A DNA stretch of 41,341 bases from a virus. Below are positions 3,998 to 37,335 of this stretch, in pieces. Made by a program: the position numbers and the translations under genes. The stretch lies in UHGV virus genome UHGV-0069723. One strand, written 5' to 3'. The notes under the pieces are model-generated. The model was not told the DNA's origin and did not search any database. It worked only from the letters and a program-made list of their open reading frames with translations. The stretch's first letter is position 1. Each line of letters begins with the position of its first letter.

Positions 3998-4897
3998 TTA
4001 CTTCATTCTGAAGACGCGTTGTGTCGTTGTTGTTTTGAATTTTTCGAATAACTCAGGGTGTACTGACTGGAATAGCTTCTGGTCGAATCTGTTGCTGATC
4101 TGAGATTTCCATGTGCAGAGCGGCTTTCCGTCCAGGGTCAGGACTGAGTGCTCTTGCATGTACATCTTCAGCTTCTCTTCTGATATAGCTATTTCTTCTT
4201 CCAGTGATTTTCTGCGTGATTTCATGTCTCGTAGATCGTTGAATAGTGCGAGTGCCTTTCCGTCAGCCTCGATACTTGTCCCGGCATCTTTCTCAAACAT
4301 CAGCGATACATCGCTTACGCTGGTAGCTTCCGGCGGGTTAAGATTTTTCACTCGGTCCCAGAAAGCGATTTCTTTTTCTAAGATCGCCTGGATAGTTTCT
4401 TCATCACGCTCAACCCGATAGATTCGGAAGTCGTCGCCACCGATAAGCACACCGAAAACGCATACCTGTTTGTTTGTAACCATCAACCCGTGCATGGCCT
4501 GGGCCGTGTAATGCACAGGAATTGCATCTGTCTGGATTTCTCCCCATTCTTTGGCCTTGAACGGACTAACTGTTTTGATCTCAATGTTCTCGCCTGACGC
4601 TGCTTCTGCATCGATCTCAGCTGCAATAAAATCGTAATCACGGTGGATATAGCGGTTTCCGCGATGAACGATTTCCATCCCTGTTTCCTCAGAAAGCAGG
4701 TCTATTACGTATGGCTCCATACGCTGGCCACGCGTGAAAACTTTCTGCTTGCTTTGGTCTACTGGTTTGACACGTGGCTGGACCTTATCCAGATAAACCT
4801 CAAGCGGGGTGCGCCATGGGCTAATTCCAAGAATCCCTGCAACATCGCTTCCTCCGATGTATTTTGTTCTATCCATGATTCCAGCGTTCCGCATCAT
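3998..4897 (-). CDS. YqaJ-type (lambda Exo/RecE-like) recombination exonuclease
   Basis: 299 aa; N-terminal RTKYIGGSDVAGILGISPWRTPLEVY typical of the YqaJ viral recombinase nuclease domain; paired with recT. Start could be 4897 or the Met at 4876. Confidence 0.85.
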   Translation of the reverse strand: MMRNAGIMDRTKYIGGSDVAGILGISPWRTPLEVYLDKVQPRVKPVDQSKQKVFTRGQRMEPYVIDLLSEETGMEIVHRGNRYIHRDYDFIAAEIDAEAASGENIEIKTVSPFKAKEWGEIQTDAIPVHYTAQAMHGLMVTNKQVCVFGVLIGGDDFRIYRVERDEETIQAILEKEIAFWDRVKNLNPPEATSVSDVSLMFEKDAGTSIEADGKALALFNDLRDMKSRRKSLEEEIAISEEKLKMYMQEHSVLTLDGKPLCTWKSQISNRFDQKLFQSVHPELFEKFKTTTTQRVFRMK

Positions 4898-5193
4898 GCC
4901 GCGTCCCTCTGCCCATCAAGCTGATCCGCCAGATCCCAGCGCGCTATAATTGCCATTGCCTCGCGCCGGTAGGCATCCATCAGTTCTTCGAACTCAGGGC
5001 TGTCTTTAGCAGCCTCCAGCACTTCCTGACGAACGCCTTTGCCTGTTACAACGTCGAAAGTTGAGGACAGTTGATGAAGTCGGATGCTCTCAATCAGTTC
5101 AACTTGTCGGTCATATAGCTGTTCTGACAGGCGGTAGTCCTTGTCGAATGCCAGCATGATTTTTTGAAGATTTTTCTGCTGATTAACGTTCAT
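4894..5193 (-). CDS. Hypothetical early protein
   Basis: 99 aa from ATG 5193 (MNVNQQ...) with GGGAGGG RBS; stop overlaps the exonuclease start (ATGATG). Confidence 0.55.
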   Translation of the reverse strand: MNVNQQKNLQKIMLAFDKDYRLSEQLYDRQVELIESIRLHQLSSTFDVVTGKGVRQEVLEAAKDSPEFEELMDAYRREAMAIIARWDLADQLDGQRDAA

Positions 5194-5195
5194 TA

Positions 5196-5348
5196 TCAGC
5201 CCTCCCATATCTCATTATCGTTGGCTACATCGCGAGCTTCTTTGCTGACGAAAGCCCACTTAATGCCTTCCTGTAAGGTGCGGAACTTCCAGCTCATGAA
5301 TCCGCATGCAGTAACGCAGTACCAACCGTTGATGATTTTCCACTGCAT
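5196..5348 (-). CDS. Small hypothetical protein, first gene of leftward early operon
   Basis: Hand-translated 50 aa ORF (MQWKIINGWYCVTACGF...) not in the ORF track; GAGGT RBS 8 nt upstream; stop 2 nt before the next gene start. Confidence 0.4.
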   Translation of the reverse strand: MQWKIINGWYCVTACGFMSWKFRTLQEGIKWAFVSKEARDVANDNEIWEG

Positions 5349-5367
5349 AACTTGTTACCTCGGTCTG

Positions 5368-5444
5368 TTACCGTTGAGGTAATAATTATGCTTATTTGGT
5401 TTGGTGTCAATAGATATGAGTTAAAAAAATTACCCGTAAGGTAA
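5368..5444. promoter_or_regulatory. Left operator region: two perfect TTACC-N5-GGTAA sites (5368-5382, 5430-5444) flanking the leftward promoter
   Basis: TTACCGTTGAGGTAA and TTACCCGTAAGGTAA; on the minus strand a perfect TTGACA -35 (5405-5410) lies between them. Confidence 0.55.
5382..5410 (-). promoter_or_regulatory. Candidate sigma70 early-left promoter (PL-like)
   Basis: Minus-strand TTGACA, 16-17 bp spacer, TAATTA/ATAATT -10; about 35 bp upstream of the first leftward ORF. Confidence 0.4.
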
Positions 5445-5452
5445 TCTATCTG

Positions 5453-5480
5453 GCAATAAAAAAGCCGCCATGAGGCGGCT
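5453..5480 (-). terminator. Rho-independent terminator downstream of the repressor gene
   Basis: Minus-strand hairpin AGCCGCC-TCAT-GGCGGCT followed by TTTTTTATT. Confidence 0.6.
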
Positions 5481-5501
5481 TACTTACTGAAAAATATAGT
5501 T

Positions 5502-6086
5502 TTATTGTTTGCTTTTTTCGTTCTGGTTGATGACAAATTCAATGTAACTTTCGATCTTTGCTTTCTCGGTTTCGGGTAACAATGCGTAGCGCGAGCGGTC
5601 ATAGTTGATAGTCGCAGGGTCGTGCGGGTGAATCAGTAGTTCATATCCGTGACGCCCGAATGCGGATGCAACATTCTCCAGGGTGGAAATGGAAACGCTG
5701 ACCTCATTGTTTAACAGGCGACTGATTGTCACCTGGGCGACGCCGGATGCGCGGTGAAGTTTTCCCTGCGTTGAAAGGTCGCGGCTTTCGCTCATCCAGC
5801 GTTCCAGGTTGTGAGCCGCCAGCTGACCAATGTCGCTTGGGCCGACAGGCTGAAAACCTTCCTGAGAAAGCGAGCGATCGATATCAAGCCAGTTACGGGG
5901 TTTATTGGCGGCAGCTTCAATTTTTCGCGCAACCTGGTCGCCGATAACCTTCTTGCCAAGAGCCCAGCGGTTTACCAGATTTGCCTGAGTTCCAAGTTTT
6001 TCTGCCATCCGCGTCTGAACACCATTGAATTCACGGTCGATCAAGTCGTTGAGATTTTGCCTGCGGACGTCCTGGATACTTTTCAT
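5502..6086 (-). CDS. Prophage repressor candidate with two HTH domains and no S24 peptidase domain
   Basis: 194 aa; two XRE/Cro-C1-like HTH segments (QTRMAEKLGTQANLVNRWALG and ASGVAQVTISRLLNNE); divergent from the cro-like gene across an operator-bearing intergenic region. Confidence 0.7.
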   Translation of the reverse strand: MKSIQDVRRQNLNDLIDREFNGVQTRMAEKLGTQANLVNRWALGKKVIGDQVARKIEAAANKPRNWLDIDRSLSQEGFQPVGPSDIGQLAAHNLERWMSESRDLSTQGKLHRASGVAQVTISRLLNNEVSVSISTLENVASAFGRHGYELLIHPHDPATINYDRSRYALLPETEKAKIESYIEFVINQNEKSKQ

Positions 6087-28216: not shown

Positions 28217-30691
28217 ATGAGACAGGAATGTATACAAGCGGTTCAGCAGGCGGCGCAGCGCATGTTAACGGCGCGAGAAATACAGAACATTGAAGACCGC
28301 ATTTATCGAAATATGCGCTCCATTGCTCGTGATGACCCTATATCGTGGCGACAACTTTCCGAATCAGAGCGGCTATATCGAGCAGCACAATTGGCATCTG
28401 AAGAATTACAGCGAGAAGCGGCATTAAAGAAACGTCGTGTGGCTCTCACTATAGCCGCGCGTCAGAGATTGGATAAATTTATCAATAGCTATCAAGGGGC
28501 TGATGGGAAACTTGGCGCTCTTAACCGTACTATAGCTTTTAATGCAGACGGTAAATCTAATTTCCTCTCTGTTGAATCCAGAACAAAAGCCACCCGTGAT
28601 TATGCATTGAGTCAATTGCAGGAGGCATTCGAAGCAGTTGATCCTCGCTTTTTTGGTCTGTTTGAAGATGAAGCGGGCGTACGTGACCTGGTATATGAAA
28701 TGCGGGGGCAAAATACTGGCAATGCTAAAGCAAGAAACGGTGCTAAGGCGTGGAGAGAAGTTACAGAGCTGCTGCGCCGCCGGTTTAATGATGCTGGTGG
28801 GGACATTGGCTATCTCGAAAACTGGGGGATCCCTCAACATCATTCTATGGAAAAGGTTGGGGCAGTATCAAAGGATAAGTGGGTTAGCGATGTTATAGGT
28901 AAGCTGGATCGCAAATATTATATCCGAGCCGATGGACAACTGATGAACGATGCCGAGTTGTCTTCATTTCTTGGAGAGGCTTATAACACGATCGCTACTG
29001 GTGGGCTGAATAAGCTTACTGATACCGGAATGCGAATTTCCGGCGCACGTGCTAACCGTGGTAATGCATCACGACAGATACATTTCAAAGATGCAGATTC
29101 CTATCTGCAATATCAGCAACTTTATGGCGATCGCTCTCTATGGGAAATCATGGTCGGTCACCTGGAAGGTATCAGTAAAGATATTGCACTGGTGGAAACA
29201 TATGGCCCAAACCCCGATCATGTTTTCCGCTCTCTTCTTGATCAGGTGAAGGCAGAAACGGCAACAGCTAACCCGAGTAAAACCGGTAAAGTCGAGCGGC
29301 TGGCGAACAACACAGAGAATCTGTACAACTTTATTTCCGGAAAGACACAGCCTGTAGCGAATCCGCACATCGCGCGATGGTCTGACAATATCCGCAACTG
29401 GCTGGTTGCCAGCAGACTCGGATCCGCGTTGCTGTCATCGTTCTCTGATCTTGGAACCATGTATCTGTCTGCGAAGGTTACCAACCTTCCAATGAACCAG
29501 TTATTCCGCAACCAGCTTGAAGCTATGGACCCAACGAACCGTACAGAACTTGCGCGGGCGCGCCGCGCTGGTCTGGCGATGGAATCTCTACTTGGCAGCG
29601 TTAACCGCTGGGCGATGGATAATATGGGGCCGTCAGTGTCTCGTTGGGCGGCAACGGCGGTAATGCGTGCCAGTGGGCTTACAGCATGGTCAGATGCGCA
29701 CAAGCGCGCCTATGGCGTAACCATGATGGGAAGCCTGGGAGAAGTAGTGTCACGGACACCAGACCTTCGTAGCCTCGATGACTCTGATTTTCGTATCCTG
29801 AAAAGCAAAGGGATTACTGACACAGACTGGAGCGTATGGAAGCTGGCGAAACAGGAGGACTGGGGGAACGGTAATAATATGATGCTGACACCGGAAAGCA
29901 TTATGCGTATCCCTGATTCAGCAGTTAAACATCTTGGTGAGCCTGAACGCGTGAAATTTGAGGCAATGCGTAAACTGCTCGGTGCCGTAACTGAAGAAGT
30001 TGATATGGCTGTTATTACACCGGGAGCACGTGAGCAACTGATAACCGGTTCTGGTATTCAGCGTGGAACATGGAAAGGTGAATTAACGAGAAGTGTTTTC
30101 CTGTTTAAATCGTTCCCTATCTCGGTTGTTATGCGTCACTGGTCACGCGCTATGGGTATGCCGTCTGCTGGTGGGCGTGCGGCATATATTGCGACGTTTA
30201 TTGCCAGTACGACCATTCTTGGCGCTTTGTCGCAGCAACTTAACGACCTTGCGTCTGGTCGTAATCCTCGAGAGATGACAGGAGAAGATGCCGCAAAATT
30301 CTGGCTTGGTGCTCTACTGAAAGGTGGTGGTCTTGGCCTTTACGGTGACTTTTTATTGTCAGATCACACTAGGTACGGAAGCGGCGCGCTGGCGTCGATG
30401 CTTGGCCCGGTAGCTGGTCTGGTTGATGACGTAGTGAAGATTGCTCAGGGCATACCGTTAAATGCTGTGGAAGGGAAGAGTGAGCAGACTGGTGGTGATC
30501 TGGTGAAGCTGGGGAAAGGTTTGATGCCTGGTGCGAATCTCTGGTACTTGAAGGCGGCTCTCGATCACATGATCTTTAACCAGATGCAGGAGTATTTTTC
30601 ACCAGGCTATTTGCGTAAAATGGAGCAACGTTCGAAGAAAGAGTTTAACCAGACATACTGGTGGCGACCACAGGATGTCACTCCGCAATAA
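28217..30691 (+). CDS. Large internal virion / ejection protein
   Basis: 824 aa; last gene of the long late operon before the accessory region. Confidence 0.6.
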   Translation: MRQECIQAVQQAAQRMLTAREIQNIEDRIYRNMRSIARDDPISWRQLSESERLYRAAQLASEELQREAALKKRRVALTIAARQRLDKFINSYQGADGKLGALNRTIAFNADGKSNFLSVESRTKATRDYALSQLQEAFEAVDPRFFGLFEDEAGVRDLVYEMRGQNTGNAKARNGAKAWREVTELLRRRFNDAGGDIGYLENWGIPQHHSMEKVGAVSKDKWVSDVIGKLDRKYYIRADGQLMNDAELSSFLGEAYNTIATGGLNKLTDTGMRISGARANRGNASRQIHFKDADSYLQYQQLYGDRSLWEIMVGHLEGISKDIALVETYGPNPDHVFRSLLDQVKAETATANPSKTGKVERLANNTENLYNFISGKTQPVANPHIARWSDNIRNWLVASRLGSALLSSFSDLGTMYLSAKVTNLPMNQLFRNQLEAMDPTNRTELARARRAGLAMESLLGSVNRWAMDNMGPSVSRWAATAVMRASGLTAWSDAHKRAYGVTMMGSLGEVVSRTPDLRSLDDSDFRILKSKGITDTDWSVWKLAKQEDWGNGNNMMLTPESIMRIPDSAVKHLGEPERVKFEAMRKLLGAVTEEVDMAVITPGAREQLITGSGIQRGTWKGELTRSVFLFKSFPISVVMRHWSRAMGMPSAGGRAAYIATFIASTTILGALSQQLNDLASGRNPREMTGEDAAKFWLGALLKGGGLGLYGDFLLSDHTRYGSGALASMLGPVAGLVDDVVKIAQGIPLNAVEGKSEQTGGDLVKLGKGLMPGANLWYLKAALDHMIFNQMQEYFSPGYLRKMEQRSKKEFNQTYWWRPQDVTPQ

Positions 30692-30699
30692 AAGGAGAT

Positions 30700-30825
30700 A
30701 TGATGGTTCAAATAACTTTTATTGTACTAATATGTGCAGCGTTTTTATGCTATTCATACATTTTGATAAAAATGGGTTTCAATTGGAATCTCTGTTGCGT
30801 GCAGCGGCATGGTTCGGCTTTGTAG
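30700..30825 (+). CDS. Small hydrophobic peptide (moron candidate)
   Basis: Hand-called 41 aa ORF (MMVQITFIVLICAAFLCYSYILIKMGFNWNLCC...) with AAAGGAG RBS; the alternative track frame 30675-30863 is also hydrophobic, so the frame is uncertain. Confidence 0.3.
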   Translation: MMVQITFIVLICAAFLCYSYILIKMGFNWNLCCVQRHGSAL

Positions 30826-30910
30826 TATTCGGAATTGTATTGTTCGGAAGAATAATAAAATAACTAGTTAATTTGTGGATTGGTGCTGTTTTTCCATGAT
30901 AGGGGTAATT

Positions 30911-31291
30911 ATGAGAAAAGTATTTTTGATTTTTGGATTTATGCTTCTCGTTGGATGCCAGTCAGCTGCACAGTTTGAAAGAAATATGCTTACGTGGCGC
31001 GGGCAGAGTATAGACGCAATGGTTCAGCAGTGGGGGTATCCTCAGGGAGAGCTTACATCTCCAGATGGAAACAGAGTGTATGTTTACTCAAGCTCTGGTA
31101 GTTATAACGTACCACAAACCACAACGTATAATACTACGTCTAATCTAATTGGTAATACTATATATTCAAACACATACGCAACAACTGATGGCGGTTATAC
31201 ACTCCATTTCAGTTGCTCTGTTTACGTTGAGTTTGGTGCTGATAAGATTATTAAAAATGTTACATGGCGCGGTAATAATTGCGTTGCGTGA
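30911..31291 (+). CDS. Lipoprotein (moron), possible BamE/SmpA-OmlA-like N-terminal region
   Basis: 126 aa from ATG 30911; signal peptide with lipobox LLVGC; Thr/Asn/Tyr-rich C-terminal half; visibly AT-rich gene; stop overlaps the GTGACATGTCAC palindrome. Confidence 0.6.
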   Translation: MRKVFLIFGFMLLVGCQSAAQFERNMLTWRGQSIDAMVQQWGYPQGELTSPDGNRVYVYSSSGSYNVPQTTTYNTTSNLIGNTIYSNTYATTDGGYTLHFSCSVYVEFGADKIIKNVTWRGNNCVA

Positions 31292-31299: not shown

Positions 31300-31325
31300 A
31301 GGCCGCTTTCGCGGCCTTGTTTTTA
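31300..31325 (+). terminator. Rho-independent terminator after the lipoprotein gene
   Basis: Hairpin AGGCCGC-TTTC-GCGGCCT followed by TGTTTTT. Confidence 0.6.
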
Positions 31326-31401
31326 ACGAATGCCACCGCCGCCCGGGCGGGAATCCGCAGAACGCCCACCGCAGCGGGAGCCGTCAGCAGCAGTATCGCT
31401 G

Positions 31402-31905
31402 TTATACTATTGAGTTTAATGATATCTTGTCCTTAATATCATTAAGTTTGCCATATATCTTTTTTGCATAAAAATCAGCCTCCTCAATAAACCTCGACTT
31501 CTCATTATCAGGCATATTTTTGAAGGTATGTGCACATGTATATTGAGAGTAGTATTTGTGAAATTCTTGATACGCATTATTGAGTTCTTGTAAGTCTTTT
31601 TTATACTCAGGAAGGTATATGTTTATTAGCATTTCCATCGTTTGCAACGGATTCGCTCTTGATACGTCAAATTTACTATCAGAGTGGTATCTGGCATTTT
31701 TTACGAAATTGAGAATGGTAATTGTGCTTGAATCTATGACTTTTTTAGTAAGTATACAATTTATAAATAATTGCTCGCGTTTATCCCTTAATATTTTTTG
31801 TCGCTCTAATCTTATGCTGTTTTTGTATCCTTGTCCTGCATTTATATAAGTGGAAACTATAGCAATAACTGCACCTATCAATGCGCCTAAGATAGTATTA
31901 TCCAT
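31402..31905 (-). CDS. Membrane-anchored hypothetical protein (cassette gene C)
   Basis: 167 aa from ATG 31905 with AGGTGG RBS; one N-terminal hydrophobic helix (NTILGALIGAVIAIVSTYI) then a Lys/Tyr-rich soluble domain; visibly AT-rich; no motif I recognise. Confidence 0.6.
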   Translation of the reverse strand: MDNTILGALIGAVIAIVSTYINAGQGYKNSIRLERQKILRDKREQLFINCILTKKVIDSSTITILNFVKNARYHSDSKFDVSRANPLQTMEMLINIYLPEYKKDLQELNNAYQEFHKYYSQYTCAHTFKNMPDNEKSRFIEEADFYAKKIYGKLNDIKDKISLNSIV

Positions 31906-31930
31906 ATAAGCCACCTAAACTGCGTAAAAT

Positions 31931-32794
31931 TTATTTTCTGCCACTTCTGTAGTATATGTTGCGACCATTTTTGGTCACATTAACAACATGACCCTTTGTT
32001 TCTACTTTGTTATTTGTTGCCTTATATACTTCAAAGTCAAACCATGATATATGACTTATTTCGTCTATAGATACCATAATTTCTAGACCTTGAACTTTCT
32101 TTTTGCTTATCCCTTTTATCGCAGCACTGCGCTTAATTTGGATTTCACCTGGGTAAGCGTTTGTAAATGTAACAGATAAATTTTCTTTGTTTCTGTACCC
32201 TGACATTAAAGGAACAAAAGATATGTGTTGGTGTGGCCCTTGATTTTCCGTTGGCTCACCAGAACCATTTATTATTCCAACGTATACTTTATTTGATGAT
32301 AAAGTAATTAACATTGGTTTCTTAGGATCTGATTCGATTGCATCAAGCAATAGCAAATCTAAAGAACCCTGGGAGTACGTTTTTCGCAATACCCTAGCTT
32401 TCATTGCCTCTGATATTTTGTCATAAATATCACGTTTATAAAAACAACCTAAAAGAAGATCTTTTAGCCAAACAAAAGATACATAACACAAAGAGAAGCA
32501 AATTGATGTGACTGACAGAAGAAGTAGCCACATGTAAATTCTATCTGTTTCTGGTTTTGACGTTACATTAAAAGTTTCCACCATATCGTGAACTAGGTGA
32601 AAATCAGGATATTTATATTTTATAAATGCGGCAATTATTACCGAAGCAACAAGGCAATATGTACCTAATGCAGCTACTTTCATATAAAGAAGCTGGCCTT
32701 CATGTCGGTATAAACGGAAATAATGATACTGGTTAGCGGTTATCATAATATAACCACTAACCAGAATGGGGATAATTAGAAGAGCTAACAACAC
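31931..32794 (-). CDS. Polytopic membrane protein with C-terminal soluble domain (cassette gene B)
   Basis: 287 aa; three to four hydrophobic segments in the first ~125 aa; probable GTG start overlapping gene A's stop by 1 nt; visibly AT-rich; no motif I recognise. Confidence 0.65.
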   Translation of the reverse strand: MLLALLIIPILVSGYIMITANQYHYFRLYRHEGQLLYMKVAALGTYCLVASVIIAAFIKYKYPDFHLVHDMVETFNVTSKPETDRIYMWLLLLSVTSICFSLCYVSFVWLKDLLLGCFYKRDIYDKISEAMKARVLRKTYSQGSLDLLLLDAIESDPKKPMLITLSSNKVYVGIINGSGEPTENQGPHQHISFVPLMSGYRNKENLSVTFTNAYPGEIQIKRSAAIKGISKKKVQGLEIMVSIDEISHISWFDFEVYKATNNKVETKGHVVNVTKNGRNIYYRSGRK

Positions 32795-33003
32795 TATTTC
32801 CTTACAGTGGCAAGATCCTGTTTAACGATTGCAGCAGCGAGACGACGCATCTCCTTAACCTCAGGAAGCTCAGAAATTTGCTGTGATGAGATATACACAC
32901 CACCACGCTTGTTAACCTGCGCTGACGCCGGAACTTCTGCATTTTTTGCCTGAGGGCTGGGTGCATTATCCCTCGTTTTTGTACGAGCGAACCAAAATCC
33001 CAT
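32794..33003 (-). CDS. Small hypothetical protein (cassette gene A)
   Basis: 69 aa; strong GGAGGAGA RBS; ordinary GC unlike B and C; promoter-like TTGCAG-17-TACTAT and an operator site directly upstream. Confidence 0.5.
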   Translation of the reverse strand: MGFWFARTKTRDNAPSPQAKNAEVPASAQVNKRGGVYISSQQISELPEVKEMRRLAAAIVKQDLATVRK

Positions 33004-33029
33004 ATCTCCTCCTCATGTAAACACATGGT

Positions 33030-33044
33030 TTACCTTTAAGGTAA
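33030..33044. promoter_or_regulatory. Perfect TTACC-N5-GGTAA site overlapping the cassette promoter -10/+1
   Basis: TTACCTTTAAGGTAA on the plus strand; on the minus strand it abuts the TACTAT -10 candidate (33044-33049). Confidence 0.5.
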
Positions 33045-33114
33045 TAGTACGCTATTCACCCCCAGTCTGCAATCGTACAGAATTATTTAAAGGCACATCC
33101 CTGTGCCGCCGCTG

Positions 33115-33810
33115 TCAGAAGAACCCTGCTTTGTCGTTGATGTATTCCGCGTGGGTCTGGATATCACGCAGGCATTTACTCACACCGACGATGTAGCAGA
33201 ACATGGTGGTCAGCTCCGCCGCCGCGCCCGATACGTCGTGCCCGTCGTCCTGTAACTGGTTCAGCAGATTCATCAGCAGTGAGTTCTCCGTCAGGCCGAG
33301 AACACCAGACGGCGAGTGAATCAGGCTGCGGTAGCCGGGCTTCAGCGGGGCGCTGTAGGTTTTGTTCTCTATCTTCATCGCCTGCATTACTGCTGACGCC
33401 GTGGCGTTGGCTACCTGGTCGGCAACCATCTTTATGCGTTCTTCCTGCGGGAGCGAGTTTTTAATGTAACTTCCGGTGCGGCGGATCTGAGGAAGTACTT
33501 CGCCTGTAACCCATTTGCGAAAGCGGTAGGGGATAGTGCCTGGTGTCACCGCATCGCGGCAGCGGAGGATCAGTGTGTAGAGGCCTGACTCGGAGATGAT
33601 GATCGATTCTTGCTCACCGCCAGGGGTGTCGGTTGAAGCGACGCCCTTCTCATCATCATCAAGTTTTCGAACAGCATCTCGATGGTTTGCTATGCCTATA
33701 GCCCGACAAACATCTGAAGCGATAAACCATGGCTCACCATTAATGACGATTACCCGTATATCGGCTTGGGATTCGAAAGAAAAAATGGACGTGCTTTTTG
33801 TAGCTGTCAT
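33115..33810 (-). CDS. Bro-N domain antirepressor-like protein
   Basis: 231 aa; N-terminal FSFESQADIRVIVINGEPWFIASDVCRAIGIANHRDAVRKLDDDEK...GLYTLILRC...WVTGEVLPQIRRTGSY fits the Bro-N pattern; C-terminal domain is paralogous to the small ORF at 34126-34383. Confidence 0.85.
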   Translation of the reverse strand: MTATKSTSIFSFESQADIRVIVINGEPWFIASDVCRAIGIANHRDAVRKLDDDEKGVASTDTPGGEQESIIISESGLYTLILRCRDAVTPGTIPYRFRKWVTGEVLPQIRRTGSYIKNSLPQEERIKMVADQVANATASAVMQAMKIENKTYSAPLKPGYRSLIHSPSGVLGLTENSLLMNLLNQLQDDGHDVSGAAAELTTMFCYIVGVSKCLRDIQTHAEYINDKAGFF

Positions 33811-34079: not shown

Positions 34080-34094
34080 TTACCGCAAAGGTAA
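34080..34094. promoter_or_regulatory. Perfect TTACC-N5-GGTAA site upstream of the Bro-N gene
   Basis: TTACCGCAAAGGTAA, within the ~315-bp untranslated region between the two antirepressor-type genes. Confidence 0.45.
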
Positions 34095-34125: not shown

Positions 34126-34383
34126 TTATCTGGTTTGTTTTCGTAATTGTTCGGCACAATAGTCGAGATGTGTTTGTAGATCCTGCATAGACATCTGTGA
34201 GCTGGTGACGTAGTTAATCAGTGCAGTCAGTTCGGCAAGTGGGCCATCGACATTAAATCCATCCTTATCGAGATCCCGGAGTAATTTCATCAAGTGCGAT
34301 CCCTCCACCAGTGACCTGACGCCTCCCGGCGTGTGAATCCTTTCGGTAAATCCGTCTTCCAGTGGATAGTGATACTGCTGCAT
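34126..34383 (-). CDS. Small antirepressor-like protein (paralog of the Bro-N protein C-terminal domain)
   Basis: 85 aa from ATG 34383 (MQQYHYPLEDGF...); HTPGGVRSLVEGSHLMKLLRDLDKDGFNVDGPLAELT...DLQTHLDYC aligns with HSPSGVLGLTENSLLMNLLNQLQDDGHDVSGAAAELT...DIQTHAEYI of the Bro-N protein; LexA box in its promoter. Confidence 0.6.
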   Translation of the reverse strand: MQQYHYPLEDGFTERIHTPGGVRSLVEGSHLMKLLRDLDKDGFNVDGPLAELTALINYVTSSQMSMQDLQTHLDYCAEQLRKQTR

Positions 34384-34578: not shown

Positions 34579-37335
34579 ATGACGGTCTCAACCGAAGTTG
34601 ACCACAACGAATACACAGGTAACGGAGCTACGACATCATTTCCGTATACCTTCCGTATTTTCAAAAAATCCGACCTGGTTGTTCAGGTGTCTGACCTGAA
34701 CGGGAACGTAACAGAATTGGTTCTGGATACCGGTTATACGGTAACAGGGGCGGGCACTTATAGTGGCGGTTCTGTTGTTCTTCCGTCGCCGCTTGCTGCT
34801 GGATGGCGAATTACGATAGATCGTGTGCTTGATGTGGTGCAGGAGACTGATCTTCGTAATCAGGGAAAATTTTTCCCCGAGGTGCATGAAGATGCCTTTG
34901 ACTATCTGACGATGCTGATCCAGCAATGTTTTGGATGGTTCAGACGTGCATTGATGAAACCATCTTTGCTTGCAAAATATTACGATGCAAAGCAAAACAA
35001 AATTTCTAACCTTGCAGATCCATCACTTGAGCAGGATGCTGTAAATAATCGATCAATGCGCAATTATGTTGATGCTGCAATCGCCGGAGTTGTTGGTGGT
35101 TTTGGTTGGTTTATTCAGTATGGTTCTGGAGCAGTATACCGAACGTTCCAGGATAAGATGCGGGATAACGTTAACGCTCTTGATTTTGTTCCGTTTGAGC
35201 AAAGATATGCTGCATTAAATTTTGAAGTTGATGCGTCTGAATGGTTAATTAATGCGATAAATTCTGGTGCAAGTGTCGTTAGAATACCTGCAGGTAAATG
35301 GATGATTTCTAAGAACATAGATGTGCCTCCTGGAGTGTCTTTAATTGGTGATGGCATTGATTATTGGGATACATATAGACCAGCGCCTGAAAGATTATTA
35401 AAAAGTTGGAGTAAAGGAACCCATCTTGTATTTACTGGTGATGGAGAAAAAAACAAATATTTTTTTAACATCTCTAATGAAAGACCAGTTAAAATTGTTG
35501 AAGGGATATCTTGTAAGTTCACTGAGTTTACAAATGAAGATTCTGTAGGTGTTACTCCTGCTACACCAAAAGCCATGAGCGTAGCTGTTAGTATCAACAG
35601 GGCATCACAGTTACGCAACCTGAGAATAATGGTAAGTAAAAATGGTATTGAAGGATACAATAACCCTGATTCTTATTCATTGGGTGATGACTGGGATATA
35701 GGGTTGCATGTATACGATAGCTGTGATTCAGTTATTGATAACGTACAGATTGTCGGCTATTGGAGGGTAAAAGGACTACTACTGACAGAAAATGACGGGA
35801 GCCTTTCAATGAAGGGAAATCCTGAAAAAACGCACTTTAATAACGTTTATGTCCAGTCAGGGATCGCGATAAGGAATAGCCCTCAGATTGATCTTGTAAG
35901 TAATACTGAAAGCTCAGTGACATTTAAACATAAAAAGTCGATGAGAATAACTTCAGTTAAACAGTTTAAAATTGCTGGCAGTGAATCAGTATATACGTAT
36001 TCAGATGCATCATTTGATGGAGCTAACATCACACTATCTGGTATTTCTCCTGAAATACAAGGTACAATAAGTGTAATCAGGTTTCCGTCAATTGGTAATA
36101 ATTTTAGCGGGACTGTTTTTGAGAATACAGTAGCCACTACTCTTGATCATACATCAGGTAAGCCATCAGAATACTTTGGCCTTCCTGCATCCTTTGCATT
36201 AGAGGTTGATGGTTTCCCTGTTCGTAATTTAAGGTTTGATAAATTCAAAGCTCAAACAACATTTGATAAAGGAAATTGCATTTTTGGTGATTGCCGTGAT
36301 GTTAAAATAACATCATCTGAGTTTGAAAATGGAATTATGATTGCGTATAACCAGACCGAGACTCAGGGTTATACAGGAAATCTTAGATTTTTTGCTTCTG
36401 ATCTTCAGAGCAGCGTTAACACAAGTGAGTTTAAACCAAGAGACGCATTTGTAGACAATAGACAAATAAAAACGGAGTTTACTGATGGTTCGTTCATTAT
36501 AAAGAACTGGAGGCCTACAGATACAAAAATACAATGGTCGTCTGGAGCAGATGCTATTGTTCTTAGAGAGTCACCTGACGAACAATCAGACGGAAATATT
36601 TACGGGTATCACATTGATGGTAAAAGATGGATTAATGTTAGTGGATATAACAAAGATATAAATATTTCATCAAGAAACTTAAGCGTAAAAAACCATGGTG
36701 ATGACTCTGCAGTTATTAATATATTCGGCGACTCTGGAAATATTGCCATTAAAGGTAATTTTTCACCAATTATTGATAACAGCAAATCTCTTGGTGCACC
36801 ATCATTTAGATGGGCACAGGTTTATTCTGCGAACGGTTCGATAAACACATCAGATGGTAGAGAAAAAAGTGAACCGATTAGTACAAGTGAGCTCAGCTTG
36901 TATATGTCTCGTGGTTATGAAGGTGATGCAATTCTGGATGCATGGGGAGATATCAGGATTGTAGCTTTTCGCTGGCTTGATGCCGTCAGGGAAAAGGGAG
37001 ATGGTGCCCGCTGGCATTTTGGTGTTATAGCACAACAAGTGAGAGACACTTTCCTCGCGCATGGGATTGATGGAACCAGATTTGGCCTTCTCTGTTACGA
37101 TGAATGGGATGATAAATACGCGCCAGTGATGGCGGTAAGGATGATCACTAAAGTTGTGGATGGCGTCGAAATTGAGATGGAAGAAGAATACGAAACAGAA
37201 GAGCGAACTCTGGTTTGCAAGGCTGGAAATAGGTGGGGTATCCGTACTGACCAGTGTTTATGGCTTGAGTCAGCTTATTTGCGTAGAAGAATCGAAAAAA
37301 TAGAATCACGTCTTGCAATGCTTGAAAGTAGCTAA
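34579..37335 (+). CDS. Tailspike / tail fibre with C-terminal intramolecular chaperone (peptidase S74-type) domain
   Basis: 918 aa; conserved-looking N-terminal head-binding region; visibly AT-rich central region (~35200-36850); C-terminal ...SDGREKSEPISTSELSLYMSRGYEGDAILDAWGDIRIVAFRW... resembles the self-cleaving chaperone-of-endosialidase domain. Confidence 0.85.
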   Translation: MTVSTEVDHNEYTGNGATTSFPYTFRIFKKSDLVVQVSDLNGNVTELVLDTGYTVTGAGTYSGGSVVLPSPLAAGWRITIDRVLDVVQETDLRNQGKFFPEVHEDAFDYLTMLIQQCFGWFRRALMKPSLLAKYYDAKQNKISNLADPSLEQDAVNNRSMRNYVDAAIAGVVGGFGWFIQYGSGAVYRTFQDKMRDNVNALDFVPFEQRYAALNFEVDASEWLINAINSGASVVRIPAGKWMISKNIDVPPGVSLIGDGIDYWDTYRPAPERLLKSWSKGTHLVFTGDGEKNKYFFNISNERPVKIVEGISCKFTEFTNEDSVGVTPATPKAMSVAVSINRASQLRNLRIMVSKNGIEGYNNPDSYSLGDDWDIGLHVYDSCDSVIDNVQIVGYWRVKGLLLTENDGSLSMKGNPEKTHFNNVYVQSGIAIRNSPQIDLVSNTESSVTFKHKKSMRITSVKQFKIAGSESVYTYSDASFDGANITLSGISPEIQGTISVIRFPSIGNNFSGTVFENTVATTLDHTSGKPSEYFGLPASFALEVDGFPVRNLRFDKFKAQTTFDKGNCIFGDCRDVKITSSEFENGIMIAYNQTETQGYTGNLRFFASDLQSSVNTSEFKPRDAFVDNRQIKTEFTDGSFIIKNWRPTDTKIQWSSGADAIVLRESPDEQSDGNIYGYHIDGKRWINVSGYNKDINISSRNLSVKNHGDDSAVINIFGDSGNIAIKGNFSPIIDNSKSLGAPSFRWAQVYSANGSINTSDGREKSEPISTSELSLYMSRGYEGDAILDAWGDIRIVAFRWLDAVREKGDGARWHFGVIAQQVRDTFLAHGIDGTRFGLLCYDEWDDKYAPVMAVRMITKVVDGVEIEMEEEYETEERTLVCKAGNRWGIRTDQCLWLESAYLRRRIEKIESRLAMLESS

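Follow-up and report, generated by a model that had tools for sequence, protein, structure and literature searches.

Three small co-oriented genes, here called A, B and C, lie on the minus strand of UHGV-0069723, a viral genome of 41,341 nucleotides that was analysed over its whole length (the window, in what follows) and that is a phiV10/epsilon15-like (Uetakevirus) prophage of Escherichia coli. An earlier note on this DNA had picked them out as a single AT-rich membrane-protein cassette, and the coordinates it gave for the three open reading frames (ORFs) of 69, 287 and 167 amino acids (aa) proved correct:

32794-33003, minus strand: gene A, an ORF for a predicted soluble partner protein of 69 aa (phrog_5739)
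31931-32794, minus strand: gene B, an ORF with a GTG start for a predicted membrane protein of 287 aa with three transmembrane (TM) helices and an Sm/LSm-like beta-barrel (phrog_3630)
31402-31905, minus strand: gene C, an orphan ORF for a protein of 167 aa (from the ATG) with a predicted N-terminal membrane anchor and a helical domain (phrog_36918)

The 1-nt overlap that had been noticed between the stop codon of A and the GTG of B is real, base 32794 being common to both, and for C an alternative start at the GTG at 31914 would give a protein of 170 aa. All three genes fall into PHROG families of unknown function, and scans of A, B and C against Pfam, NCBIfam and PADLOC gave no match. The same is true of a Pfam scan of 10 diverse B homologues and of a search of the PDB sequences with a B-family profile, and a database search with the A family returned proteins that are all named 'hypothetical protein' and have no Pfam domains.

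In composition A stands apart from the other two genes. The guanine-plus-cytosine (GC) content of the window as a whole is 0.481, but B reaches only 0.343 and C 0.313, and the GC content of third codon positions (GC3) is 0.27 in B and 0.30 in C against 0.41-0.62 in eight backbone genes, and so both measures bear out the claim that B and C are AT-rich relative to the surrounding phage DNA and agree with the foreign origin proposed for them. A, in contrast, is not AT-rich (GC 0.481, GC3 0.40). Hydrophobicity analysis is likewise in agreement with the topology first suggested for B and C, as B has three hydrophobic helices (residues 1-22, 35-60 and 85-116) followed by a soluble domain and C has a single one at its N-terminus. 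No such helix is found in A, which is for that reason predicted to be a soluble protein and not a membrane protein.

The pairing of A with B is conserved far beyond this phage. A word-based search for B found just 32 relatives; when a profile was run against 1.84 billion representative proteins, at least 2,782 B clusters (50% identity) came up at E <= 1e-3, with 1,623 of them at E <= 1e-10, and the cluster members are nearly all 240-300 aa long. In all, 123 loci were gathered, 47 genomic and 76 viral, the genomic ones coming from Enterobacterales, Pseudomonas, Asticcacaulis, Novosphingobium, Lautropia, Alcanivorax, Acidobacteria and Bacteroidota, with both Alphaproteobacteria and Betaproteobacteria represented. 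In these loci an ORF of 48-110 aa is found directly upstream of B on the same strand, and the encoded proteins share the motif VVGRGTVxIDPxEV...EF...A..IV. A hidden Markov model (HMM) built from the non-enterobacterial partners alone picks ORF A of the window out of 304 ORFs with E = 3.9e-5, the runner-up having E = 1.7, and an HMM of the whole A family detects an adjacent upstream partner in 92 of the 123 loci, with gaps that range almost throughout from -32 to +24 nt. The remaining loci are mostly truncated or divergent, and a small ORF with the equivalent motif NGNxSLNxxxxxV could be seen in them by eye. Neighbour clustering revealed no conserved third partner, and since A is conserved upstream of B and no other neighbour is, A-B has all the appearance of a self-contained two-gene operon that is both old and widespread. 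In E. coli it is rare, being present in only 30 of the 5,426 complete genomes. No curated protein family, PADLOC model or paper that we found covers A-B, and the pair is currently unannotated.

The A/B boundary at 32794 is itself of some interest. Compared with the same relatives, A has a synonymous divergence (dS) of 0-0.09 and a protein that is 99-100% identical, B has a dS of 0.18-0.60, and the GC content steps from 48% in A to 34% in B. Such sharply discordant divergence on the two sides points to a recombination junction at the boundary of the two genes.

The third gene has a different history, for which two further features on the minus strand are of importance:

31951-31978, minus strand: candidate promoter-like site GTGACC-16-TATACT, located within the last part of B and ahead of C (9 of 12 consensus positions matched)
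31323-31397, minus strand: what remains, at the 3' end, of a small signal-peptide gene ('transmembrane anchored') with which the slot usually closes (a RefSeq pseudogene)

The view that A, B and C are one three-component membrane system working as a unit draws on their common orientation and tight spacing, on the low GC shared by B and C, and on the fact that C follows A-B in Uetakevirus prophages wherever the context is visible (five contigs). C homologues, however, amount to 13 clusters, of which all those with a named source are from E. coli, and A-B has thousands of relatives without C. Most E. coli relatives indeed have only A and B followed by a gene of 53 aa; among the E. coli matches listed, 8 cover the full A-B-C query (>= 80%) and the others cover A-B only (68%), the two of these that were inspected ending in the 53-aa gene. 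This small signal-peptide gene is intact in relatives that lack C, and what is left of it in the window translates as SDTAADGSRCGGRSADSRPGGGGIR, which is the C-terminus of TL-2011b gp43. In addition, C is preceded by a promoter-like site in the end of B and has a ratio of non-synonymous to synonymous divergence (dN/dS) of ~0.7, as opposed to 0.08-0.17 for B, and it follows that C is under relaxed constraint and that B is supported as a real gene. We therefore consider a three-component system improbable and treat C as a separate and later insertion, the arrival of which would have truncated the start of the downstream small gene. The single three-gene membrane cassette of the earlier note accordingly gives way to a two-gene module found across phyla and an orphan restricted to E. 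coli. A, moreover, appears to be soluble and is not AT-rich. The AlphaFold2 model of C, with a predicted local distance difference test (pLDDT) score of 49.5, was too poor for a fold search.

The stretch containing the three genes is 100% identical to the chromosome of E. coli strain FDAARGOS_1257, and its flanks match phages phiV10, TL-2011b, ZX5 and phiv142-3, which makes the phage a Uetakevirus of the phiV10/epsilon15 type and not a P22-like one. To the left lies an 824-aa gene corresponding to the phiV10p20 virion protein and to the right a tail-fibre gene, where the earlier note had the last ejection-protein and tailspike genes. Besides the three ORFs the interval holds a lipoprotein gene on the plus strand, the gene remnant, an antirepressor gene of the Bro-N type (ant) and an epsilon15 gp19-like gene. 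Within it, TL-2011b and phiv142-3 share an 83-bp promoter-operator stretch with the window at 95% identity but have other cargo there. The cargo of TL-2011b comprises a 59-aa ORF, a toxin of the YafO family and a signal-peptide protein of 53 aa, and in phiV10 and epsilon15 the slot is empty. The gene set is thus variable within conserved flanks and deviates in GC content (0.31-0.34 against 0.48), as is the case for morons, and the proposed insertion hotspot is supported by the recurrence of the same promoter and operator in front of the YafO-family toxin pair. By these comparisons the site is a true cargo slot, predicted to be under repressor control.

The control elements of the slot are the following:

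33067-33072, minus strand: -35-like hexamer TTGCAG of the cargo-slot promoter, as read from the sequence (3 of 6 positions match TTGACA)
33044-33049, minus strand: -10-like hexamer TACTAT, separated from the -35 hexamer by a 17-nt spacer
33030-33044, no strand assigned: predicted prophage repressor operator TTACC-N5-GGTAA, one of 10 such sites in the window, assigned from the epsilon15 annotation

Hexamers, spacer and palindrome are all present as the earlier note had them. The operator reads TTACCTTTAAGGTAA on the plus strand, its first T being the last T of the -10 hexamer, and the -35 hexamer TTGCAG is conserved in TL-2011b ahead of the different cargo. The window holds 10 TTACC-N5-GGTAA sites where 0.01 are expected, a number reached by none of 100 shuffled sequences; they start at 5368, 5430, 6142, 8473, 8535, 11456, 14601, 33030, 34080 and 34460, and most of them abut a -10-like hexamer in the same register. 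They flank a repressor gene with two helix-turn-helix (HTH) motifs (5502-6086, a phiV10p40 homologue) and are also found ahead of two blocks (replication-distal and portal), of the small terminase and gp19-like genes, of ant and of the cassette itself. Furthermore, the epsilon15 record NC_004775.2 has seven ATTACC-N5-GGTAAT sites annotated as 'protein_bind: repressor, lysogeny' at equivalent genome positions, and because of this match the site before A can be identified, by annotation and position, as a predicted operator of the prophage's main repressor, in line with the phage-controlled expression that had been proposed. Of 16 E. coli Uetakevirus contigs, 15 have it at -42 of the ATG of A and the remaining one has it shortly before the true start of A; two more distant loci of the Uetakevirus type likewise have it upstream of A. 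Among the homologous loci compared it is absent from all other phage types carrying A-B, and the operator would for this reason belong to the host phage and not to the cargo. Given its placement at the -10/+1 region of the slot promoter, A-B-C are predicted to remain silent in the stable lysogen and to be expressed along with ant upon infection or induction.

Two side observations concern the regulon as a whole. The operator pairs 5368/5430 and 8473/8535 are both exactly 62 bp apart, and the operators are spread across the early, replication, packaging, head and accessory regions, a layout which suggests that one repressor may directly shut many operons, late genes included.

In its AlphaFold2 model (pLDDT 70.7) the protein encoded by B begins with three long helices and also contains a beta-barrel and two short helices. 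In the model the barrel is strongly bent and five-stranded and is preceded by a helix, which is the arrangement of the Sm/LSm fold, and a BFVD fold search gave Sm-like matches, albeit weak ones; Pfam LSM, Hfq and WYL had no sequence match in B. The soluble domain is accordingly modelled as Sm/LSm-like, and the statement that the genes have no recognisable family holds for curated families but not for the fold of this domain. Invariant residues of the B family are found in the first TM helix (G14), in the first loop (G33, Y37) and in the two motifs of the barrel, KVYVG (K169, Y171, G173) and PxxSGYR (P195, S198, G199, R201). The charge distribution indicates that B probably has its N-terminus outside and its C-terminus inside, with a cytoplasmic barrel, and the earlier suggestion of cell-surface modification finds no support here, the soluble domain having a predicted cytoplasmic location and no fold resembling that of an enzyme having been found. 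Known members of the Sm/LSm/Hfq and WYL barrels are soluble binders of RNA, DNA or ligands, whereas B is predicted to be tethered to the membrane, and we found no literature description of a membrane-tethered Sm-like form with three TM helices.

The layout of B is reminiscent of the mechanosensitive channel MscS, a protein that combines three TM helices with an Sm-like beta domain and forms a heptameric ring. One may consequently ask if B could be a housekeeping channel, of a divergent MscS type or another, active in osmotic or ion homeostasis, that hitch-hikes on mobile elements, and the likeness does extend to three N-terminal TM helices, a predicted N-out/C-in orientation, a similar length (~286 aa) and an Sm-like beta domain beneath the membrane. 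MscS is however a chromosomal housekeeping protein without a partner gene, and its C-terminal alpha/beta domain is absent from B. B has no match to the Pfam MS_channel family (PF00924), and hhalign gave the B family a probability of 0.1% against E. coli MscS. An obligatory small partner, a patchy distribution and residence in mobile-element hotspots also fit such a channel poorly, and we regard this explanation as very improbable.

Protein A was considered as an AbrB/MazE-like antitoxin and rejected, the hhalign probabilities being 0.3% for AbrB and 4% for MazE. No recognisable DNA-binding antitoxin fold was found in A with Pfam, NCBIfam and these two hhalign comparisons, a separate search for ribbon-helix-helix or HTH folds not having been made. 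A further element is found at the beginning of B:

32729-32764, minus strand: 15-bp RNA hairpin followed by a U-rich tract in codons 11-22 of B, 30 nt into the gene, flagged as terminator-like (minimum free energy -22.5 kcal/mol, z = -5.8)

The hairpin is kept with compensatory changes across the enterobacterial subfamily, one pair for instance being UA in 10 sequences, CG in 6 and AU in 2. Its covariation score is 0.289 against 0.206 for shuffled alignments (reached by 0 of 500) and <= 0.10 with slid partners. It could serve as an attenuator or as a site of processing and so hold down B in relation to A, and together the 1-nt overlap and the conserved hairpin in the 5' coding region of B would fit tight control of the A:B ratio.

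The places in which homologous pairs are found speak to what the module does. In the P2-like phages Salmonella SEN5 and Klebsiella ST15-OXA48phi14.1, A-B is located between replication gene A (gpA) and the portal gene, an interval that holds old/tin in P2 and was defined as an anti-phage system hotspot by Rousset et al. 2022 (PMC9122126), and in the Klebsiella phage the next large gene after A-B encodes a bSEFIR defence protein. In Cronobacter phage phiES15 the pair sits between int and attP. On viral contigs it adjoins an integrase gene, a C5 methylase gene, or a gene pair for an AAA ATPase and an S8 protease, which we take to be the domain composition of IetAS, and on others it is inserted into tail or head gene clusters, just ahead of the gene for the tape measure, tail tip J, the tail fibre or the Mu-like protease. 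Homologues are also carried by conjugative plasmids of the IncC type in Salmonella, and 104 chromosomal neighbours, as a raw count, include two CBASS cyclases, DpdE, a ZorD-like helicase, mad3 and PDC-S08. The distribution, judged from these raw association counts, is patchy, mobile and hotspot-bound, and this would be typical of toxin-antitoxin (TA) and defence cargo. That B should be an effector of CBASS, a cyclic-oligonucleotide-based anti-phage signalling system, was considered separately and rejected, with cyclases in 2 of ~28 loci and the suspected Pseudomonas neighbours turning out to be major facilitator superfamily transporters and housekeeping genes.

Two details of the plasmid copies may be added. 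In the Salmonella IncC plasmid pSTY1-2010K-1587 the pair (4791-5789) encodes proteins of 68 and 262 aa with a 3-nt gap and adjoins a gene for a 547-aa AAA ATPase and a mercury-resistance region, and 26 of 30 plasmid records with B homologues are from Salmonella.

Taken together we favour, at a probability of roughly 45%, the reading that A-B is a module for conflict between phages, or between mobile elements, of a kind akin to toxin-antitoxin, abortive-infection or exclusion systems, with B as membrane effector and A as its regulator. The pair would move as cargo among temperate phages, conjugative plasmids and chromosomes, and in the slot analysed here it would sit together with the unrelated orphan C downstream of the antirepressor gene, behind a weak promoter under the main repressor's operator. 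A and B would be made from one transcript and be translationally coupled, B being an inner-membrane effector and A a small cytoplasmic regulator, either antitoxin or sensor. Sm-like domains normally assemble as hexameric or heptameric rings, and if those of B do so beneath the membrane, the ring would put 18-21 TM helices around its axis and could form a leak, a gate or a block, which A would hold shut as an antitoxin or trigger as a sensor. Gene order, the 1-nt overlap and the hairpin early in B could keep A in excess over B. Deployed at infection or induction beside the antirepressor, the module would exclude competing phages during the vulnerable early or lytic phase, as opposed to protecting the resting lysogen.

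Several observations must be set against this proposal. None of the 5,027 models of PADLOC-DB v2.0.0 matched A, B, C or 18 homologues, among them the 10 diverse B homologues and the A-B pairs of three isolated phages, and searches of the literature by protein accession and by concept gave nothing relevant on A-B. Many chromosomal copies are found amid housekeeping genes, for example in the Pseudomonas oryzihabitans group, and Sm-like domains are more often RNA binders than membrane gates. The slot promoter TTGCAG-17-TACTAT matches 7 of 12 sigma-70 consensus positions and was not listed by the promoter scan at its threshold. Furthermore, the predicted repression in the lysogen is the opposite of what is seen for most prophage defence genes, such as old, tin, rexAB and sieA. 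The role in superinfection exclusion or abortive infection that was put forward for the locus at first is therefore retained in part, in that the contexts of the homologues fit conflict and defence, but the operator makes for a poor fit with classical defence expressed in the lysogen.

A more specific version of the conflict reading, which we hold with considerably less confidence, is that A-B constitutes an undescribed class of membrane effector in which a membrane-tethered Sm/LSm ring would sense a nucleic acid or nucleotide signal on the inner side of the membrane and open or close a pore of the 3-TM units, with A as trigger or brake. In Uetakeviruses it would then be a repressor-controlled weapon switched on at infection or induction and not a shield expressed by the lysogen.

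Non-lethal superinfection exclusion at the stage of DNA entry, in the manner of P22 SieA or T4 Imm, has likewise to be weighed, B in this case blocking the ejection conduit or the incoming DNA of a competitor during the early or lytic phase of the carrier and A assisting or regulating it. T4 imm and sp represent exclusion of the early type, and the predicted expression at infection or induction matches this. B is also predicted to be an inner-membrane protein with a fold of the nucleic-acid-binding type at the place where injected DNA emerges. The position of A-B moreover mirrors that of P22 sieA, which lies on the opposite strand between the last ejection-protein and tailspike genes and the product of which blocks DNA injection (PMC10883804). 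The two loci also share proximity to an antirepressor region, and SieA and, by prediction, B are both inner-membrane proteins. SieA is however encoded by a single gene that is expressed from the prophage and confined to P22-like prophages, in which it is found between the homologues of gene 16 and gene 9, and the position in a Uetakevirus is analogous only. Neither B nor C has sequence similarity to SieA (E = 1.4 and 3.2, respectively, in BLASTP against the P22 protein), and the cytoplasmic motif FxRYPxEAxxFNK of SieA (PMC10883804) is absent from both translations. In addition, the occurrence of the pair on plasmids and chromosomes and in siphoviruses, myoviruses and Mu-like phages is hard to square with a target in the ejection proteins of one phage group, and a strict requirement for a partner such as A would be unusual among exclusion proteins. 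A block of DNA entry thus seems to us rather unlikely.

A different kind of explanation holds that A-B helps the carrier phage through its own lytic cycle, be it in lysis timing or holin regulation, in host takeover, or in tethering RNA or DNA to the membrane by way of the Sm-like domain. Such a function would agree with placement in a repressor regulon of early, replication and late promoters, with RNA binding being classical for Sm/Hfq folds, and with the several phages that embed the pair, co-oriented, in late structural operons (before tape measure, tail tip J or Mu-like protease genes). The pair is nonetheless dispensable, as phiV10, epsilon15, ZX5 and most Uetakeviruses are without it, and the low frequency among complete E. 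coli genomes given above, the occurrence on plasmids and as isolated chromosomal pairs without phage context, and a position that differs among phages are the traits of a moron and not of an integrated life-cycle gene. We accordingly find it doubtful, a little more so than a block of DNA entry, that the pair serves the lytic cycle of its carrier.

The conflict module that we favour has partial counterparts among known systems. The Rex proteins of phage lambda and gp30/gp31 of mycobacteriophage Butters are pairs of a soluble and a polytopic membrane protein, and RexA/RexB and gp30/gp31 resemble A-B in being borne by prophages and in the control of a membrane effector by a cytoplasmic partner that is proposed for A-B. 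There is however no sequence or family match (PADLOC) between these pairs and A-B, A is tiny (~65 aa), B has an Sm-like cytoplasmic domain of its own, and rexAB is expressed in the lysogen whereas A-B lies behind a repressor operator. Type II TA systems, such as the small ORF and YafO-family toxin of TL-2011b, are alike in the coupling of a small upstream gene to a larger downstream one and in their autonomous mobility on phages, plasmids and as isolated chromosomal pairs, and the TL-2011b pair even occupies the identical promoter-operator slot. A-B indeed has the gene organisation of a TA system, an abutting or overlapping small-then-large pair that is co-inherited on mobile elements, but B is predicted to be a 3-TM membrane protein where the toxin is a soluble enzyme, and A is not AbrB/MazE-like. 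Cargo of the P2 gpA-portal hotspot, finally, includes homologous A-B pairs in exactly that hotspot in two P2-like phages, once beside bSEFIR, but about a third or more of such cargo is without a proven defence role, so that residence there is guilt by association, and A-B matched none of the PADLOC models searched.

Upstream of the slot lies the antirepressor gene:

33115-33810, minus strand: Bro-N antirepressor gene ant (Pfam Bro-N, E = 2e-21; phrog_130, anti-repressor)

The ant region is 98.6% identical in DNA sequence to the region of phage ZX5 that holds ORF4, and ZX5 ORF4 has been assayed as an antirepressor by overexpression (PMC9782041). The terminator scan of the window gave no terminator-like site between ant and A, and read-through into A from the ant promoter, which itself bears an operator (34080-34094), is therefore possible. 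The epsilon15 gp19-like protein encoded at 34126-34383 on the minus strand shares homology with the Bro-N antirepressor in the C-terminal domain of the latter, as both match phrog_450 and phrog_15539, and may be a stand-alone antirepressor domain; the gp19-like gene and ant each have a separate repressor operator. At the end of the late operon are two further accessory genes of low GC content, a 62-aa membrane ORF at 30675-30863 on the plus strand and, at 30911-31291 on the plus strand, a lipoprotein gene (lipobox LVGC, phrog_3716, GC 0.40), the product of which could be a candidate exclusion factor of the Cor/Llp type, and they are followed by a GC-rich hairpin at 31300-31317. In the tail-fibre gene (34579-37335, plus strand) the GC content falls to 0.36-0.39 from ~35000 onward, which suggests that the receptor-binding part has been exchanged. 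RefSeq has this gene as an incomplete pseudogene, and the ORF in the window is intact with 918 aa.

We conclude that A-B, two genes joined here by the orphan C and probably not expressed in the lysogen, is a good candidate for an undescribed conflict system. In broad terms it resembles known two-gene membrane modules and TA cargo, and what is new is the combination of three TM helices with an Sm-like domain, the universal mini-partner and the repressor-operated slot. No described counterpart was found for an effector architecture of three TM helices and an Sm-like barrel. As a small two-gene unit the pair can be cloned, and the proposal makes predictions on toxicity, membrane potential, phage exclusion and repressor control. 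The wiring is likewise unusual, with cargo placed behind the prophage repressor's own operator in a slot that is shared with a YafO-type toxin pair, and it suggests a class of prophage cargo that acts during infection or induction and not in stable lysogeny. If A-B is indeed a conflict module, a large unannotated family, comprising thousands of sequence clusters from several phyla, would join the catalogue of phage-defence or toxin-antitoxin systems.

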